A stretch of 7,266 bases of DNA, taken from a virus. Taxonomy: Duplodnaviria > Heunggongvirae > Uroviricota > Caudoviricetes. The notes beneath the pieces are model-generated. The model searched no databases. It saw only the letters and a list, made by a program, of their open reading frames with translations, and was not told the origin of the DNA. Position numbers and translations under genes: made by a program. Location of the stretch: IMG/VR virus record IMGVR_UViG_2690316166_000008; one strand, 5' to 3'. The number at the start of each line of letters is the position of its first letter. Within the stretch, counting starts at the first letter, position 1. This document shows positions 47-7,266 of the stretch, in pieces.

Positions 47-553
47 TTAAATCTTCCAGGAAATTTCTGCATTGCCGTCAGCATCACCGGCACCTGTGAA
101 TTCAGCGTTGGTCAGCACCACGTTTTTGCCACTGACTGACGTGGACATGAATCCACCCAGCGGCACTTTGATGGATTCATCAGTGGAGACGACAACGTAT
201 ACCGGATCGCCTTTTTTGATAGTGCTGGCATCAAAATCAGAACCGAGATTAACGGTCACGTAGCCACGCTTCATGGCGTCGCCCGGGAAGTTCTTGCCTG
301 TTCCCACCTGGCGAACCATGTCCGGCTGCGACGTGGTCGGATAAGGGCGCACGTAGATCCCCTTCACCTTGTCTGCGGTATCACCATCTGCCAGCGGCAC
401 GAAAAAACCGTCATCATCGTATTTACCAGCCAGGCCATAGGCAGCGAAGGCGTTATCGGATTTAAGGACCACCGGTTCGACGGTTAAGTCCTGCGGGCGA
501 GAGACAGCCCCGGCAATGCCAACAGGCATCCGGTACAGAAATACATTATTCAT
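47..553 (-). CDS. phage head structural protein, small (possibly decoration/cement-type capsid accessory protein; function inferred from position only)
   Basis: 168-aa ORF. ATG at 553-551 lies 3 nt after the TAA stop (557-559) of the upstream gene, with AAAGGG inside the end of that gene acting as a Shine-Dalgarno sequence, so the two look translationally coupled. The protein is Gly/Thr/Val-rich and reads like a beta-rich fold. It follows a scaffold-like gene in a head module. No specific family recognised. Confidence 0.8.
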   Translation of the reverse strand: MNNVFLYRMPVGIAGAVSRPQDLTVEPVVLKSDNAFAAYGLAGKYDDDGFFVPLADGDTADKVKGIYVRPYPTTSQPDMVRQVGTGKNFPGDAMKRGYVTVNLGSDFDASTIKKGDPVYVVVSTDESIKVPLGGFMSTSVSGKNVVLTNAEFTGAGDADGNAEISWKI

Positions 554-556
554 TTT

Positions 557-1777
557 TTACCCTTTACGGTTTGCCCAGAATTCAGCGTTTTGTTTGTTCA
601 GGGAAGCGATACTGGTCATGCCCATGTTTAGGCGCTGTGCATCGCCGGTGGTGGCGCGGGTGTTTCGCCCTTTGGCAACCTCAGACACGGCATTAAACGC
701 CATGTCGACCGATTGTTTCGGTAATTTGCGGATATCCGCATCACCGACTATCTGGCGAACCAGCGTTTTGTCAGCAGAAGCCAGAACCTCGCGTTTGAAC
801 GCGGTCGGTTTCATCTTACGGCTCAGATCGATACCCGGAACGATAACTTCGGCACGCCAGGCTGAGTCACCAGTAATCGTGGTTTCCTCTTCATCGTCCT
901 CGCCGTCACCGGTCGGATTATCGTCAGGCTTATTATCGTTATCGCCCGTGGCATTTCTTTCCAGCTTAGCCAGCAGGGCTTTCAGTAATGTTTTGAGGTC
1001 ATCATCACTGTCGCCGGTTGGATCTCCGCCCATCTCTGGTGCTTTGTCCGGTAGTGGTTGCTGCGGGGACAGGTTGATGTTGAGATTAACGCCCTGCGGC
1101 AAATCCCCCTCATCTCCTGTAACCGATGCGGGAGCCGACTCCACCAGTTCGTTCATGGTGTCGGCATCTCCTGTCTTGATGGCCGCACGCATGCGGTTCC
1201 ACCAGTTTTTCTTTTGATTTGCCATTGTGTCTCTGTCTCCAATTGCACAACGATTTCCGGCTCTGCCTTTAGGGACAAGAGCCACATGGTTTCCGGTAAT
1301 ATCGACCTGCTCGGCTTTACCTGGCTCGGTCTGCTCGTACTCCGCGTCATAGCCGCACGACACTTCGCGCAGGCCATCTTCGATAAGCTGAATGGCGCTT
1401 TCGTCTTTGACGATAAGGTCAGCCAGCATCAAATCAGACTGCTCACCCGTCCCGCGCCGGACATTCTGGAGGTGCCCGACAGCAAGCTCTTTCCAGTTCT
1501 CGGGATTTACCAGCCGCACATTCCCGTTTTCATCTTCAGGATGCAGGATCGTGATGCTCATCCCTTCGAATGAGGCAAGCGTGGCCGGATGGAATACCTG
1601 CTCAGGAGAACGCGTGACGACTATTTCACCGAACTTATCGGGTTTCAGTTTTGGCAGGTCATCAGCACCATAGAGCTGCTTACCTGTTCGTCCTATCGGC
1701 ACGTCTTTGCACAGCAACGAGCCGTCAGCCAGGCGGTATCGGGTTTCCCCGAGCCTGGTCTCAAAAAAGTATTTCAT
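557..1777 (-). CDS. phage head morphogenesis protein, scaffold/prohead-protease-like (resembles DUF2213-type prophage head proteins) with a long acidic low-complexity linker
   Basis: 406-aa ORF. ATG at 1777-1775 lies 3 nt after the TAA stop (1781-1783) of the upstream gene. The N-terminal ~185 aa look globular. Residues ~203-305 are an Asp/Glu/Gly/Pro-rich low-complexity segment (e.g. GDSDDD, DGEDDEEE). The C-terminal ~100 aa look helical and basic, as in scaffolding proteins. Position between portal-side genes and a small head protein. The family name is recalled from memory, not searched. Confidence 0.8.
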   Translation of the reverse strand: MKYFFETRLGETRYRLADGSLLCKDVPIGRTGKQLYGADDLPKLKPDKFGEIVVTRSPEQVFHPATLASFEGMSITILHPEDENGNVRLVNPENWKELAVGHLQNVRRGTGEQSDLMLADLIVKDESAIQLIEDGLREVSCGYDAEYEQTEPGKAEQVDITGNHVALVPKGRAGNRCAIGDRDTMANQKKNWWNRMRAAIKTGDADTMNELVESAPASVTGDEGDLPQGVNLNINLSPQQPLPDKAPEMGGDPTGDSDDDLKTLLKALLAKLERNATGDNDNKPDDNPTGDGEDDEEETTITGDSAWRAEVIVPGIDLSRKMKPTAFKREVLASADKTLVRQIVGDADIRKLPKQSVDMAFNAVSEVAKGRNTRATTGDAQRLNMGMTSIASLNKQNAEFWANRKG

Positions 1778-1780
1778 GGG

Positions 1781-2711
1781 TTATGCTGCCCTTTTCATTG
1801 CGAATGGAACGCGAACAAACACGATCTCTTTATAGCAGCGGCAGTTTGGCAGCTCGCCCNNNNNNNNNNNNNNNNNNNNNNNNNNNNNNNNNNNNNNNNN
1901 NNNNNNNNNNNNNNNNNNNNNNNNNNNNNNNNNNNNNNNNNNNNNNNNNNNNNNNNNNNNNNNNNNNNNNNNNNNNNNNNNNNNNNNNNNNNNNNNNNNN
2001 NNNNNNNNNNNNNNNNNNNNNNNNNNNNNNNNNNNNNNNNNNNNNNNNNNNNNNNNNNNNNNNNNNNNNNNNNNNNNNNNNNNNNNNNNNNNNNNNNNNN
2101 NNNNNNNNNNNNNNNNNNNNNNNNNNNNNNNNNNNNNNNNNNNNNNNNNNNNNNNNNNNNNNNNNNNNNNNNNNNNNNNNNNNNNNNNNNNNNNNNNNNN
2201 NNNNNNNNNNNNNNNNNNNNNNNNNNNNNNNNNNNNNNNNNNNNNNNNNNNNNNNNNNNNNNNNNNNNNNNNNNNNNNNNNNNNNNNNNNNNNNNNNNNN
2301 NNNNNNNNNNNNNNNNNNNNNNNNNNNNNNNNNNNNNNNNNNNNNNNNNNNNNNNNNNNNNNNNNNNNNNNNNNNNNNNNNNNNNNNNNNNNNNNNNNNN
2401 NNNNNNNNNNNNNNNNNNNNNNNNNNNNNNNNNNNNNNNNNNNNNNNNNNNNNNNNNNNNNNNNNNNNNNNNNNNNNNNNNNNNNNNNNNNNNNNNNNNN
2501 NNNNNNNNNNNNNNNNNATTTCACTGTAACGCTCCAGCGCCGCAATAATTTCCGTGATACTGTCATTTGAACCATCGTAGCGACCATTTACGATGTCTCC
2601 GACCGCCCTCGCTATCCTGCGTAGGCTGGTTCGATACCGGATTTCCGCCTGACGGCTCCTGCGGTTCGTCATCAGGTTCGCCGATGCCGGGCGGCGCTTC
2701 ATCTTCGGCAT
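1781..2711 (-). CDS. phage protein of unknown function, interrupted by N run (5' fragment 2518-2711, 3' fragment 1781-1859); may be one gene, two genes, or a continuation of the portal gene
   Basis: 5' fragment: ATG at 2711-2709 preceded by GAGGA 8 nt upstream; the frame is open into the N run and shows good codon usage in its last ~45 nt before the gap (…AVGDIVNGRYDGSNDSITEIIAALERYSE). 3' fragment: only one minus-strand frame is open across 1781-1859 (…GELPNCRCYKEIVFVRVPFAMKRAA, stop TAA 1781-1783). The two fragments are in different frames relative to the N count, so the N-run length is not the true length. Interior is unknown. Confidence 0.45.
1860..2517. other. run of 658 N (assembly gap or masked sequence)
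   Basis: Directly visible. The flanking coding frames do not match across it. Confidence 0.99.
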
Positions 2712-3645
2712 TCTCGATGTCCTCGTCGGTAATGGATGCCCCGATGCCGGTTACGTCAGAATTTTCTCGCAAATCAGTCATAGCGGCTTTCAGTGTCATC
2801 AGACCATCACCCAGCGCCGTACTGATTGCGTTGGTGGTGTTTAACGCCACCGTTGAGCGATCGACATCAGACATTTGCCAGAGCGGGTTAAACTCAAACG
2901 TGAAATCGTCCGGCAGCGGCTTGCCAAGTTCCGAACGATGCATGATGTCCAGTATCCGCCGCACCGGAAGACGTAAACGCCTCTCCTGCAACGAACTGAT
3001 GCGATCGTAATAGTTGGCAAGGTCTGCATCACCGGTAGAAAATCCTTTCGGGGACTGTCCGAACAACCGCACCAGTGGGATACCAACAGCGCCACTAATC
3101 TGTTCTACAAACTGCGAAAGGATGTCATCCAGACCACTGAAGCTGTACTGATGGGTTTCAAACTTATCCCGCGAGTCCATGAGCGTCATGCCTTCATTAC
3201 TCTGGAACTGTCGAATCAGGTCGATATTCTTCAGCAACGCTTCATACGCAGGACCACCAAGTGCGATAAGCTCGCGTAGCTTCTCCACGCTGTAGGTACG
3301 CAAATGCGCCTTGTAGACCAGCTGCGCCGCGCCGACAGTAGCGCTGTCGAACGCGGTAAGACGATCCCAGATACGCTCTACAACCGACATTCCCCATTCG
3401 TTCTCGGTCATCTTCTGCTGAAATGGCAACGTGACGCCATCAAAGCGAATCAGGCGACTGTGATGAATGCGCCAGGCAGGAATTCCCGTTGCTGTGGTCA
3501 CCACATCGTAAAACTCAGGTTTACCCAGGTCCGGCCCCATATCTTTAATGCGGCGGGTCAGTGCCGGGTCGACCATCCAGCGGTCGAGCGGGAGAATCCC
3601 CTTAAACTTGCCCTTACCGATGGTTTCGGGTCGCAGCGGGGTCAT
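2563..3645 (-). CDS. phage portal protein (putative)
   Basis: 360-aa ORF immediately downstream of the terminase large subunit gene. ATG at 3645-3643 preceded by GAGGGG about 9 nt upstream, embedded in the last codons of the large-subunit gene. Acidic, Pro/Gly-rich disordered C-terminal tail. Gene order TerS-TerL-portal is canonical. The protein is short for a portal, so the assignment is by position and general character, not a recognised signature. Confidence 0.65.
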   Translation of the reverse strand: MTPLRPETIGKGKFKGILPLDRWMVDPALTRRIKDMGPDLGKPEFYDVVTTATGIPAWRIHHSRLIRFDGVTLPFQQKMTENEWGMSVVERIWDRLTAFDSATVGAAQLVYKAHLRTYSVEKLRELIALGGPAYEALLKNIDLIRQFQSNEGMTLMDSRDKFETHQYSFSGLDDILSQFVEQISGAVGIPLVRLFGQSPKGFSTGDADLANYYDRISSLQERRLRLPVRRILDIMHRSELGKPLPDDFTFEFNPLWQMSDVDRSTVALNTTNAISTALGDGLMTLKAAMTDLRENSDVTGIGASITDEDIENAEDEAPPGIGEPDDEPQEPSGGNPVSNQPTQDSEGGRRHRKWSLRWFK

Positions 3646-3651
3646 TGGTGC

Positions 3652-5552
3652 CTACCCCTCAATCATGATGAAACCCACCGCGCCGCCGTAGAGGCGCGAC
3701 CATTTCAGCACGTCNNNNNNNNNNNNNNNNNNNNNNNNNNNNNNNNNNNNNNNNNNNNNNNNNNNNNNNNNNNNNNNNNNNNNNNNNNNNNNNNNNNNNN
3801 NNNNNNNNNNNNNNNNNNNNNNNNNNNNNNNNNNNNNNNNNNNNNNNNNNNNNNNNNNNNNNNNNNNNNNNNNNNNNNNNNNNNNNNNNNNNNNNNNNNN
3901 NNNNNNNNNNNNNNNNNNNNNNNNNNNNNNNNNNNNNNNNNNNNNNNNNNNNNNNNNNNNNNNNNNNNNNNNNNNNNNNNNNNNNNNNNNNNNNNNNNNN
4001 NNNNNNNNNNNNNNNNNNNNNNNNNNNNNNNNNNNNNNNNNNNNNNNNNNNNNNNNNNNNNNNNNNNNNNNNNNNNNNNNNNNNNNNNNNNNNNNNNNNN
4101 NNNNNNNNNNNNNNNNNNNNNNNNNNNNNNNNNNNNNNNNNNNNNNNNNNNNNNNNNNNNNNNNNNNNNNNNNNNNNNNNNNNNNNNNNNNNNNNNNNNN
4201 NNNNNNNNNNNNNNNNNNNNNNNNNNNNNNNNNNNNNNNNNNNNNNNNNNNNNNNNNNNNNNNNNNNNNNNNNNNNNNNNNNNNNNNNNNNNNNNNNNNN
4301 NNNNNNNNNNNNNNNNNNNNNNNNNNNNNNNNNNNNNNNNNNNNNNNNNNNNNNNNNNNNNNNNNNNNNNNNNNNNNNNNACAGGATACTGTTCTCCGTT
4401 GTTAATGGCGTTAAACGTATTTCTGAAACGGTCAGCCACCAGCCACCATGCCTGAGCCTTAAGATTTGCGAAAAAGTCTTTGTTGGGGATGCCGTTGTAC
4501 TCGTCATCTGGCTCATGCACACCAGCACCGGCGTTAAACCTCTGGTAATTCACACGTCGCGCGTATGCGTTCTCGCTCTTCCGGTCAGCGTTAATTTCAG
4601 AGAATTTAGCACCGGCAGACGCACCAACACCGATAGAGTCGTAAACAATATCTGCTTCACGCTCCAGCGCCGCCTGATAAGTACGCTGGCAGCTCTTCAG
4701 TAATTCATCTTCTTTGGCCTTCCATTCGTCGGCCCAGAAAACAACGGATCCGTGACGGTAAACGTTAGCGCACTTATCTGTACCACTGTCAGCCACGTCA
4801 AAGCCAATACGCTTTCTTCCACTGGGTTCGAAATTTAACGTTTTGTGCGCATCCACTGCGGCTTCTATCCAAGACAGTTTGATGATTGCCGCATCATCAT
4901 CAGACTCCGGAACGCCCTCATACACATGTTTAAAACCATCCGGATCACGGCGTCGCGCCGCGTCGATAACCTTAAGCATGGTGTCAGACAGAAACGGATT
5001 TTCGTCATAGTTAATTTTGCGGATGAGAGTGCCTTCGGGCGGATCAACAACGAAGTTGCGCCAGACGAAATCAGTAACAAGTCCGGGGTTGAATATGAAC
5101 CAGCATTCCGAACCCTCTTTACGGATCGTTGGCTCCAGAATTTTCCACTGGTATTCCGTCAGTGCGTGGGCTTCTTCCAGCCACAACACATCGATCCCCT
5201 CCAGTGACTTAATTTCTTCGATGTTGCGCCATAATCCATAAAAAACAAATTCCGAGCCAGTAACCCGGTTAATGATTTTGTTGTTCAGAATACGGAAACG
5301 GTGCCGCAGACCAAACCTGTCTATCTGAATTTTGAGCAGGGTATACACCGACTCTTCGATTTTATTCTGGATCTGACGGGCACAACAAAAACGCAGGGTG
5401 TATTTATTCGACAGAAATATGGCAATGCCAGCGGCATCCCATGATTTTGACGATGACCGACCACCATAAAGCACTTTGTTACGTGCCCGCATAGTCCAGA
5501 AACTACGTAAAGCCGGATTCAGCGTCGGTTTGGATGTCAGAGTAGAAGTCAT
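3652..5552 (-). CDS. terminase large subunit (N-terminal ATPase, C-terminal RNaseH-like nuclease), interrupted by N run
   Basis: Walker A-like motif VLYGGRSSSKSWD (about 5442-5465), Walker B-like IDVLWLEEAH, and a nuclease-type motif GFDVADSGTDK. Proposed start is ATG 5552-5550 with GGAGAG 10 nt upstream, which places Walker A about 30 residues from the N terminus as in PBSX-type large terminases. The ORF-track start at 5660 lies deep inside the small-subunit gene and is rejected. After the N run the coding frame is a different one (…DVLKWSRLYGGAVGFIMIEG, stop TAG 3652-3654), supported by codon usage. Length is therefore nominal. Confidence 0.85.
3715..4380. other. run of 666 N (assembly gap or masked sequence) inside the terminase large subunit gene
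   Basis: Directly visible. 666 is a multiple of 3, yet the large-subunit frame differs before and after the run, so the true missing length is not 666. Confidence 0.99.
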
Positions 5553-6267
5553 TGAGGTCACGCTCTCCATTGCCATCATCAATACCTGCATCACGGCGAA
5601 GACGATCAGCCTCCAGAGACACCTTATCAGTGGCGGCCTTGCGGTAGGCTGTATCAGCAAATATTTTTCCTACCGTCGCAAGCGTGCCAACGATGGACTC
5701 AATACGAACTGTATTGCGCATCATTGCTTTCTCGGCGGCGCTGATATTTTCAATCAGCATCTTCCTTTCCTGGTCCCCATTAGCATCTTCCAGCGACACC
5801 AACCACCGACCAATATTCTCTGCAGCGACAAGGTTGTTAGCACGAAGGCGAAATAATTCGTCCTCGAGCGTCAACGCTTTAGCGTCCTCTATCACCTCAT
5901 CTTTGAGCAGAAGGCGACGGGCATAACCACCGTGTTTTAATGCCTGCTGGTTACCGGGTTGGAATGGGTTAGTCGGGGGATCGGTACGCATTCCGCGTAT
6001 CGGTTTCGTATCCGGTGTAGATTCTGTTTTTAGTTGCGTACTTTTTTGTGTAAGGCCAGTAATGGCAGGCTTTCTGCTGGTACGCACTTTCCTTTTTTGC
6101 GTACCATTTTTGCAAACCTGCGTACCGCCACTGCGTGCCCAACCAAGCTTTTTGGCCCTCTTCCTGATAGCCCCTTCTGTAACGCCGTATTTCTCGCCTA
6201 TATCACGGAGGCTAAGGACTCCGGCCCGGTATGCCGATTCGATGGCCTCCCAGTCCGGTTTTGCCAT
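5503..6267 (-). CDS. terminase small subunit (putative; N-terminal helix-turn-helix DNA-binding region)
   Basis: 254-aa ORF directly upstream of, and overlapping, the large-subunit gene. ATG at 6267-6265 with AGGAAG 7 nt upstream and in-frame stops just upstream. The N terminus (AYRAGVLSLRDIGEKYGVTEGAIRKRAKKLGW) looks like an HTH; the central part is a basic linker; the C-terminal half is helical and coiled-coil-like, as expected for a small-subunit oligomerisation region. Assignment rests on position and architecture. Confidence 0.65.
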   Translation of the reverse strand: MAKPDWEAIESAYRAGVLSLRDIGEKYGVTEGAIRKRAKKLGWARSGGTQVCKNGTQKRKVRTSRKPAITGLTQKSTQLKTESTPDTKPIRGMRTDPPTNPFQPGNQQALKHGGYARRLLLKDEVIEDAKALTLEDELFRLRANNLVAAENIGRWLVSLEDANGDQERKMLIENISAAEKAMMRNTVRIESIVGTLATVGKIFADTAYRKAATDKVSLEADRLRRDAGIDDGNGERDLNDFYSDIQTDAESGFT

Positions 6268-6298
6268 GATTATGCTTCCTGTGATTTACTGTTATCGC

Positions 6299-6352
6299 TG
6301 CCTGTCACAATAGGTTGCTTTAATTCTTCCTCATCACTCACTCCTGCGACGC
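6299..6352. repeat. 54-bp exact direct repeat, copy 1 (abuts left side of N run)
   Basis: tgcctgtcacaataggttgctttaattcttcctcatcactcactcctgcgacgc is identical to 6408-6461. Confidence 0.9.
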
Positions 6353-6407
6353 NNNNNNNNNNNNNNNNNNNNNNNNNNNNNNNNNNNNNNNNNNNNNNNN
6401 NNNNNNN
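6353..6407. other. run of 55 N between two identical 54-bp segments (probable unmerged contig overlap)
   Basis: Directly visible. Confidence 0.99.
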
Positions 6408-6461
6408 TGCCTGTCACAATAGGTTGCTTTAATTCTTCCTCATCACTCACTCCTGCGACGC
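6408..6461. repeat. 54-bp exact direct repeat, copy 2 (abuts right side of N run)
   Basis: Identical to 6299-6352. Confidence 0.9.
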
Positions 6462-6490
6462 TCCGTGGCAGGGCCCCCCACAGGAGTACC

Positions 6491-6520
6491 TTGTAAATGT
6501 AAGGTGTTTAAGCCTAAATT
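6491..6520 (+). promoter_or_regulatory. candidate sigma70-type promoter for the downstream membrane-protein gene
   Basis: TTGTAA (6491-6496), 18-nt spacer, TAAATT (6515-6520), in an AT-rich leader about 50 nt upstream of the start codon. Both hexamers are imperfect; this is a by-eye call. Confidence 0.25.
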
Positions 6521-6573
6521 AAGTCGTATCACGGTTAAATAGCAAAGAAAAATTCACAGAAGGAAAGACATTG

Positions 6574-7083
6574 ATGGAGTGGATAAATGCTTTGATGAAC
6601 TATTTTGTACTTCATCCATATCGCCTATGGGGGCTTCTTTTTATAATAGCGTTCACAAAATCCACTTTACTCATTTCGGCGATATTGCCACCAGCATCAA
6701 TTATGATGGCCACTGTAATTACAGTCAGCAAGACGACTCTTTCACCATGGGAAGCTGGAATCACGGTCATGAGTGGCGCATGGTGCGGTACTATCGTTAA
6801 TTACCATCTTGGTATAATAATTGGGCATATCCCTCAACTTGCATGTATAATATCAAGCCGTTCCAATACAATAGAACGGGTTCGCCTTCAGTTGCAAAAT
6901 AACTCTGTGTCAATACTTTTCACTTCGCGCTTTATCGCCGTGCTGCGTTATATTGCTCCTTTGGTGGCAGGAATGTTGCAACTTCATCCAGTGAAAGTGT
7001 ATACAGTGAGTCTGATTTCAGCTGCTAGCTGGTCAGCACTTTATGTTGGTAGTTTTAGCTTCGTGTTGCCTTTTTTTAGCTAA
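6574..7083 (+). CDS. DedA/YqaA-family-like small inner-membrane protein (about four predicted transmembrane helices)
   Basis: 169-aa ORF from ATG 6574 (the ORF track starts 3 nt earlier at TTG 6571). AGGAAAG lies 6-9 nt upstream. Four hydrophobic stretches of helix length. The pattern resembles E. coli YqaA-type DedA proteins (e.g. SAILPPASIMMATVITV, GAWCGTIVNYHLG). Visibly more AT-rich than the flanking phage genes and on the opposite strand. Confidence 0.75.
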   Translation: MEWINALMNYFVLHPYRLWGLLFIIAFTKSTLLISAILPPASIMMATVITVSKTTLSPWEAGITVMSGAWCGTIVNYHLGIIIGHIPQLACIISSRSNTIERVRLQLQNNSVSILFTSRFIAVLRYIAPLVAGMLQLHPVKVYTVSLISAASWSALYVGSFSFVLPFFS

Positions 7084-7171
7084 ACTGCCCATAAAAAGCT
7101 CTTGCGAATCCAGCTTCCCCCATTCCTCTGACAACAGAATCTGATTTGAAGGATAATGAGTAAAATTACCG

Positions 7172-7266
7172 CTACCCCCCAAGGCATTGGATCCTGATGT
7201 ACTCCTGAAGCATTCTCAATGCTGTCTGGTCGCTGATGATTCCGTCCCGGATACCGAGAACGTTTC
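7172..7266 (-). CDS. 3' end of a minus-strand CDS that continues beyond the window; product unknown
   Basis: One minus-strand frame is open from the window edge to TAG at 7172-7174 (…NVLGIRDGIISDQTALRMLQEYIRIQCLGG) and looks protein-like. Only 30 codons are visible. Confidence 0.3.
   Translation of the reverse strand, partial: NVLGIRDGIISDQTALRMLQEYIRIQCLGG

Follow-up and report, generated by a model that had tools for sequence, protein, structure and literature searches.

The window analysed here is a stretch of 7,266 nucleotides (nt) of viral DNA, IMG/VR record IMGVR_UViG_2690316166_000008 (Caudoviricetes), read on one strand. Near its right end, at 6574-7083, lies an intact open reading frame (ORF) for a polytopic protein of the inner membrane. 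This protein belongs to the DedA/VTT superfamily, and its gene is borne, in the account that we consider probable, as phage cargo (a moron). The cassette that holds this DedA gene is host-derived and is located inside a lambdoid prophage of Shigella and Escherichia coli. Morons of the slot between the Rz lysis gene and the terminase genes, of which bor is one, are classic lysogenic-conversion genes, as are others found elsewhere, such as lom. DedA proteins have now been tied to undecaprenyl-phosphate recycling, polymyxin resistance and divalent-cation homeostasis. The RefSeq name of the protein was already known, and neither the slot and its orientation nor the moron concept is new, all of them being textbook matter. 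A DedA protein as phage cargo, or in the Rz-terminase slot, was not described in the searchable literature, where the RefSeq entry WP_011069285.1 also had no mention.

The ORF encodes 169 amino acids (aa) if it begins at the ATG at 6574; an alternative is the TTG at 6571 (6571..7083, +), at which the RefSeq entry ('DedA family protein') starts. Because ATGGAGTGG opens every orthologue, and the codon ahead of it is not a start in some of them, the ATG is the better-supported start. The preliminary description, made from the letters of the window, had called the product a DedA/YqaA-like membrane protein. Membership in the DedA family is borne out by a match to Pfam VTT_dom (PF09335) of 52.4 bits against a cut-off of 33.9 (E = 9e-14), in which residues 41-161 of the protein align with positions 3-121 of the 123 in the profile. 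Comparison by hhalign with YqjA, DedA, YabI and other canonical members gave a probability of 99.9% (E = 1.2e-31, 160 columns). The YqaA half of the label is loose, as BLASTP places YabI closest among the E. coli paralogues (E = 1e-12, 25% identity), and YqjA is matched at E = 3e-9. The protein is strongly hydrophobic, with a grand average of hydropathy of +0.87 and four long hydrophobic blocks (approximately 18-50, 61-92, 111-137 and 142-169, from hydropathy only), and it contains no aspartate. The reading frame is uninterrupted in every full-length copy seen. A sequence search of the PDB returned nothing relevant to the protein.

The genes for the cement, DUF2213, portal, large terminase (terL) and small terminase (terS) proteins all lie to the left of the DedA gene and on the minus strand. 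The DedA gene is thus opposite in strand to the structural operon and divergent from terS, as was first described. On its other side the gene is convergent with a gene for an Rz-type spanin, with 88 nt between the two. The same DNA is present in closed E. coli genomes at 99.3-99.9% identity, in the order Rz-type 'lysis protein' (-), DedA, terS-like gene. The host prophage is lambdoid and has a holin gene, the lysozyme RrrD, a Q-like gene and a head and contractile-tail module of the XM1/E217 type. An early comparison of this slot with that of lambda bor proved exact for both position and orientation.

A gene at this place could also be a host gene that lies outside the prophage, or one joined to phage DNA by an assembly error. 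Such a chimera would have formed at the run of 55 Ns (6353-6407) that lies between terS and the DedA gene, in the leader as it was first read, and is flanked by an exact 54-nt duplicate (6299-6352 = 6408-6461). In addition, many database copies of the gene are on contigs of only 1.7-2 kb. However, in closed genomes of both E. coli and Shigella flexneri the Rz, DedA and terS genes adjoin without a gap; this refutes the host-gene or chimera explanation, to which we give almost no credence. The preliminary description had named two outcomes that would speak against it, namely a protein with neither a DedA match nor membrane character, and a conserved host locus outside the prophage. The match and the membrane character are both present, and the synteny is that of the prophage and not of host DNA. 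In the complete genomes the duplicate occurs in one copy, and the spacer between terS and the DedA gene is 195 nt as opposed to 304 nt in the window. The N-run and duplicate are either an artefact of contig joining or a partly masked tandem duplication of 109 nt. The three N-runs of the window exceed the matching stretches of the closed genomes by 148, 120 and 109 nt.

The borders of blastn matches and the alignments define a portable cassette around the gene (Table 1). The cassette is 82% identical to DNA of a Citrobacter-type prophage and, from 6504, 77% identical to the chromosome of C. meridianamericanus; further relatives are found on Citrobacter and Kosakonia chromosomes. No flanking repeats that could be an insertion signature were found around it. 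The DedA gene is rare in E. coli, being present in only 6 of 5426 complete genomes. The Rz end alone (from approximately 7126) is matched in 1444 of them, and terS in 209, with 112 of these matches spanning 80% or more of the gene at 88-99% identity. Outside the DedA carriers the similarity on the terS side breaks off at 6269-6274, which is the start codon of terS. Comparison with related prophages, which had been proposed as a check, found the slot empty or filled with small same-strand ORFs. The gene is missing from phages with a 98.8%-identical terS, and the slot of the relatives holds a 61-aa ORF on the same strand, nothing, or a 142-aa ORF (Klebsiella phage GZ7); the lysis modules differ in all of them.

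A second phage backbone carries the cassette. This is the Citrobacter-type prophage, which is unrelated and has a lambda-like terminase (DUF1441/Nu1 and GpA) and a GH19 endolysin; there the cassette lies antisense in the lysis-terminase region. In this prophage it is situated between two Rz-like spanin ORFs (L006 7291-7776 (-), 161 aa, phrog_214; 8736-9005 (-), 89 aa, phrog_1026), which may be the junction of two lysis cassettes. A scan with one genome per species gave 64 loci, and the gene has phage neighbours in only three of them (S. flexneri, one Shigella-like 'E. coli' and C. youngae). The remaining loci are chromosomal, with synteny conserved within the genus for 60 of the 64, in Enterobacter, Lelliottia, Kosakonia, Citrobacter, Hafnia, Morganella and Arsenophonus. 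The 16 matches in IMG/VR comprise 14 of the Shigella/E. coli type, one C. youngae contig and one stretch of host DNA. The last of these (contig L097, 73% identity) was considered as a third phage context and rejected. At 146-7101 of this contig the end of a Mu-like prophage (Mor, GemA, Gam, MuB, MuA, c repressor) abuts a chromosomal short-DedA gene, and the 'viral' call in IMG/VR is misleading for that reason. The collection of isolated phages held no homologue beyond two Acinetobacter records at 30% identity, and PHROGs gave a single weak match, to a family of unassigned function.

The composition of the gene differs from that of its phage neighbours, as had been noted at the outset. Its GC content is 41.8% (38% at third codon positions). 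The terS, terL, portal, DUF2213 and cement genes have 48-55%, with 50-61% at third positions in the four of them other than terL. For the two phage-borne copies the ratio of nonsynonymous to synonymous substitution (dN/dS) is 0.24, and comparisons of chromosomal copies with each other give 0.08-0.19; the DedA gene is under purifying selection. Taken together, the distribution, the cassette and the evidence of selection lead us to regard the gene as a captured host gene that passes from one phage backbone to another in a small cassette, which makes it a moron. The suggestion that it is one has held up with respect to its lack in phages of the same terS, its deviant composition, its portable leader and the second backbone.

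The protein belongs to a very small subfamily. An exhaustive profile search against 1.84 billion representatives returned only 12 clusters at E <= 1e-30 and then a sharp drop, past which are YabI-like proteins and proteins of approximately 670 aa with an N-terminal DedA domain. The motif of the subfamily is KST-x7-LPPAS as opposed to the canonical E-x-x-...-LPGDS, which places Lys29 at the position of YqjA E39 and Pro40-Ala41 at that of G50-D51. K29 and A41 are invariant in the subfamily, which has 33 invariant residues overall. R119 and R125, in the second re-entrant loop, correspond to YqjA R130 and R136 and are also invariant, and the position of YqjA R92 holds Ile or another non-basic residue. 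In YqjA and YghB the residues E39, D51, R130 and R136 are required, and they are modelled to meet in a pore formed by two re-entrant loops (PMC6849406, PMC7818093). Two basic residues paired in the second loop form the type of site that has been proposed to bind lipid phosphate (PMC11474028, PMC12893004, PMC10193950). Because the putative pore of the short protein (Lys29, Arg119, Arg125, and no acidic residue) would be purely basic, we propose that it binds anionic lipid without proton coupling. To judge from these residues, the protein probably acts in that uncoupled manner.

The E. coli paralogues share the VTT/DedA core with the window protein, but YabI, YqjA/YghB and DedA are only 21-25% identical to it. 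Compared with YqjA it is also shorter by approximately 50 residues, the last (C-terminal) helix being absent. UptA and PetA (B. subtilis) and PA4029 (P. aeruginosa), which are translocators of undecaprenyl-phosphate and phospholipids, belong to the same superfamily. The nearest relatives of the window protein are the chromosomal short-DedA genes, whose products are of the same length, 36-78% identical, and invariant for KST...LPPAS and RF..LRY, and whose leaders have the same proximal elements. These are stably syntenic host genes, mostly beside mgtE with its M-box or beside corA, whereas the window copy is phage-borne, richer in AT and without the perfect upstream PhoP box that is described below.

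The neighbours of the chromosomal genes may point to magnesium. A gene for a CBS and MgtE transporter (333-338 aa) is near the short-DedA gene in 27 species loci of Enterobacter, Lelliottia and Hafnia and in 5 loci of Arsenophonus; it adjoins the short-DedA gene except in Hafnia, where it is 2.8 kb away. An M-box riboswitch (RF00380, 107-115 bits) precedes mgtE where this was scanned (L029 7676-7845 (-); also L026, L033, L055, L057 and L059). In 8 Morganella loci the neighbour is corA. DedA proteins translocate undecaprenyl-phosphate or phosphatidylethanolamine and affect divalent-cation homeostasis (PMC12893004, PMC10193950, PMC10846249). By analogy, the window protein would carry an anionic lipid, either undecaprenyl phosphate or a phospholipid, from one leaflet of the inner membrane to the other, and this movement would help to maintain the envelope under Mg2+ shortage or exposure to cationic peptides. 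That it works in this way, as other DedA proteins do, is a tentative proposal that we consider possible but on the doubtful side.

An inner-membrane protein made by the lysogen might serve a different end, which is to block the entry or replication of the DNA of other phages. Many prophage exclusion proteins are small inner-membrane proteins. The DedA protein is embedded in the membrane, and its gene is cargo oriented for the lysogen, at a hot spot of accessory genes. However, no PADLOC defence model was matched at E <= 0.1, and in the overwhelming majority of cases the family is represented by a chromosomal gene in stable synteny beside Mg2+ transporter genes and not in defence islands. Homologues in phages are almost lacking, apart from the one weak PHROG match. 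A role in superinfection exclusion or defence is decidedly unlikely on this evidence.

The cassette may also bring its own means of expression. The preliminary description had credited the gene with an AT-rich leader of its own, a Shine-Dalgarno sequence and a promoter-like element, and for the leader, which is portable, and the Shine-Dalgarno sequence this stands. An arrangement GTTNA-N6-ATTNA-N12/13-TNNAAT is kept in the leaders of 10 orthologues (down to approximately 50% protein identity), the phage copies included. This shared layout matches promoters of 'architecture I/II' of the response regulator PhoP (PMC3335776); in 'architecture I' the box is 12 nt upstream of the -10 hexamer (PMC3335776). 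The PhoP box was scored as (T/G)GTTTA-N5-(T/G)GTTTA in direct orientation, approximately 12 nt from a -10 hexamer. The Citrobacter prophage copy has 2 mismatches and a spacing of 12 nt, as do the Enterobacter orthologues, most of which have a second, perfect PhoP box further upstream. Boxes with at most one mismatch occur in 27 of 61 chromosomal loci, approximately 100 nt upstream of the DedA start and pointing to it, and 20 are perfect. Their density is 3.4 per kb against a background of 0.04 per kb over the remaining sequence of the loci (84-fold), although these are related species and not 27 independent events.

No match to Rfam was found in the window, and no consensus RNA structure was found over the 10 orthologous leaders. 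The best sigma-70 match by eye is TTGTAA-N18-TAAATT at 6491-6520 (8 of 12 positions). The segment 6507-6523 (TTTAAG-CCTAA-ATTAAG), which is the direct repeat read two bases further downstream, has one mismatch to the PmrA/BasR consensus YTTAAK-N5-YTTAAK on both strands, with about 0.04 such matches expected in the leader. The PmrA/BasR consensus fits the window repeat better than the PhoP consensus does; both of these observations are post hoc.

The bor gene offers a known parallel. In lambda (Rz/bor) and in DLP12 (rzpD/borD) the moron occupies the same slot, from Rz to a Nu1-type small terminase gene, and is antisense and convergent with Rz. Both bor and borD have a perfect PhoP box, TGTTTAGGGTTTGTTTA, whose end is 52 nt upstream of the ATG and 12 nt upstream of TACGAT (L098, lambda; L099, K-12 DLP12), and borD belongs to the PhoP regulon (PMC5740661). 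The repeat of the window ends at the same distance from its ATG, although it is degenerate, unlike the perfect box of bor. Both genes encode small envelope proteins, and the DedA gene may be an autonomous unit as bor is. Bor, however, is an outer-membrane lipoprotein and the window product is a polytopic inner-membrane DedA protein, with no sequence relationship between them. Indeed, Pfam gives the VTT domain only and no membership in the Bor lipoprotein family. The likeness to bor is positional, possibly regulatory, and nothing more.

Because the cassette brings a conserved leader and faces against late transcription, the lysogen may transcribe the DedA gene on its own from a promoter that depends on a response regulator; we see the chances for and against such autonomous transcription as evenly balanced. 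A response regulator of the OmpR/PhoB type would bind the direct repeat 12-13 nt upstream of TTAAAT, and PhoP would be the best candidate, as for bor.

Expression with the lysis genes would be a different matter. A lysis accessory, which would modulate the triggering of the holin or the membrane potential in the lytic cycle, is suggested by the adjoining spanin gene, by the position between two Rz-like ORFs in the Citrobacter prophage, and by the altered membrane potential of DedA mutants (PMC10846249). However, the gene is on the strand opposite to the late operon, so co-transcription with S, R and Rz is impossible. Almost all phages that have these lysis or terminase modules also lack it, and its leader is common to chromosomal copies that have nothing to do with phages. 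A lysis accessory is accordingly very improbable.

In its fullest form, our interpretation is that the short DedAs with Lys for Glu are a distinct, proton-uncoupled branch that was ancestrally a partner of M-box MgtE in Mg2+ limitation under PhoP. One copy would have been mobilised by lambdoid phages into Shigella and E. coli as a lysogenic-conversion gene that alters the handling of undecaprenyl-phosphate or anionic lipid. As a whole this chain is speculative and unlikely to hold at every step.

Several results weigh against parts of the main reading, that of a cargo gene with its own promoter and a lipid-moving product. A sigma-70 consensus scan of the leader called no promoter at threshold, and the promoter-like element of the first description is a candidate only. 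No terminator-like site was found past 7083, where the fold of 7040-7175 is no better than that of shuffled sequences (z = -0.64). The repeat of the window departs from the PhoP box at 3 positions, every one of them in the second half-site, and its spacing is 13 nt and not 12 nt. The DedA gene could not be recognised among the 117 genes changed in a phoPQ mutant of S. flexneri 301, nor among 38 predicted PhoP boxes (PMC5775216), its locus tag being unmapped. Primers for SF1400 and SF2261, the strongest unnamed genes in that study (PMC5775216), were without a match in the window. Absence of the E39 and D51 of YqjA/YghB could mean that transport was lost rather than that a new mode was gained. 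The NCBIfam equivalogs for DedA and UptA score far below their cut-offs (PRK10847, 31 versus 236 bits; the UptA models, 19.9 versus 250 and 16.3 versus 300). The AlphaFold2 model is weak, with a mean confidence (pLDDT) of 54.5 from a 20-sequence alignment, although its helix-break-helix at 15-37/41-52 is compatible with the DedA fold. Adjacency to corA in Morganella may be just the housekeeping corA locus. Finally, the prophage is defective in complete genomes, with an insertion sequence (IS) in terL, and the identity of the protein across Shigella may stem from clonality and not from selection.

The last two points are the basis of a further alternative, that the cassette is a neutral passenger, gained through illegitimate recombination and kept in a prophage that is decaying, with neither phage nor host profiting from it. 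Decay is evident from the IS2 in terL together with a stop in the head-morphogenesis gene, and from a 1.3-kb insert in terL in S. flexneri. In addition, the window copy forms the longest and most AT-rich branch, and its regulator-type repeat is the most degraded. Neutrality is difficult to reconcile with an ORF that is intact in all full-length copies, with the dN/dS against the other phage-borne copy and the invariant residues of the subfamily, and with retention of the cassette in two unrelated phage backbones. We consider a passenger without function improbable, and the reading of the gene as intact phage cargo is retained.

Table 1. Coordinates of the DedA cassette, its control elements and the neighbouring features in the window.
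Feature	Position	Strand	Remarks
Portable cassette	6499..7093	+	75-nt leader, ORF and 10 nt (595 bp); from blastn borders and alignments
Short DedA gene, coding sequence with stop	6574..7083	+	169 aa; Pfam, hhalign, hydropathy; signature residues K29, P40-A41, R119, R125
Direct repeat TGTTTA-AGCCT-AAATTA	6505..6521	+	Conserved GTTNA-N6-ATTNA block; response-regulator (PhoP/PmrA-like) form; ends 52 nt before ATG
Candidate -10-like hexamer TTAAAT (TCTAAT in some orthologues)	6535..6540	+	Conserved; 13 nt past the repeat, 12 in orthologues; putative, not called by the promoter scan
Shine-Dalgarno-like AAGGAAAG	6560..6567	+	9 nt between GGA and ATG 6574; read from the sequence
Small terminase subunit gene (terS)	5503..6267	-	254 aa; left neighbour, divergent; phrog_370, E = 7.5e-95
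Variant-specific spacer, terS start to cassette	6268..6498	.	Contains the N-run and duplicate; likeness to same-terS prophages ends at ~6269-6274
DedA-Rz spacer	7094..7171	.	Likeness to Rz-distal DNA of other lambdoid prophages from ~7126; without terminator-like structure
Rz-type spanin ('lysis protein') gene, 3' end	7172..7266	-	Right neighbour, cut at window end; stop at 7172-7174

The terL gene differs in its state between the copies of the prophage. In E. coli FDAARGOS_943 it is broken by IS2 (L001 9482-10710), and in S. flexneri SFBU1023 it is broken at another site by an insert of approximately 1.33 kb (L018 5090-6420). The sites of insertion in the closed genomes correspond to approximately 4887 and 5100 of the window, where terL has neither insertion. 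The internal stop in the head-morphogenesis gene is in the same prophage as the IS2 (L001), which also has four tRNA genes (Gly, Thr, Arg, Ile) at 14624-14934, between the Q-like region and the holin gene. The variant-specific spacer of the window includes a GC-rich imperfect inverted repeat, CTCCGTGG...CCACAGGAG, at 6461-6486, without a T-run. The first 42 nt of terS (window 6228-6269) match unannotated DNA of many E. coli chromosomes, including those of B, BL21 and C, at 95-100% identity, and this may be the remnant of a related prophage.

At least 1000 contigs, from S. flexneri, S. sonnei, S. dysenteriae and E. coli, encode the exact protein, which if expressed would be a widespread envelope factor of a major pathogen. 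Were the interpretation true in its fullest form, the prophage would change how well Shigella and E. coli within host cells tolerate cationic peptides, polymyxin or low Mg2+. Independently of the phage, the subfamily is a natural variant for the study of the DedA mechanism, in which the charge at an essential Glu is reversed and both Arg are kept. The context of M-box, mgtE and PhoP box provides a second lead on that mechanism, which likewise does not depend on how the gene came to be carried by phages.

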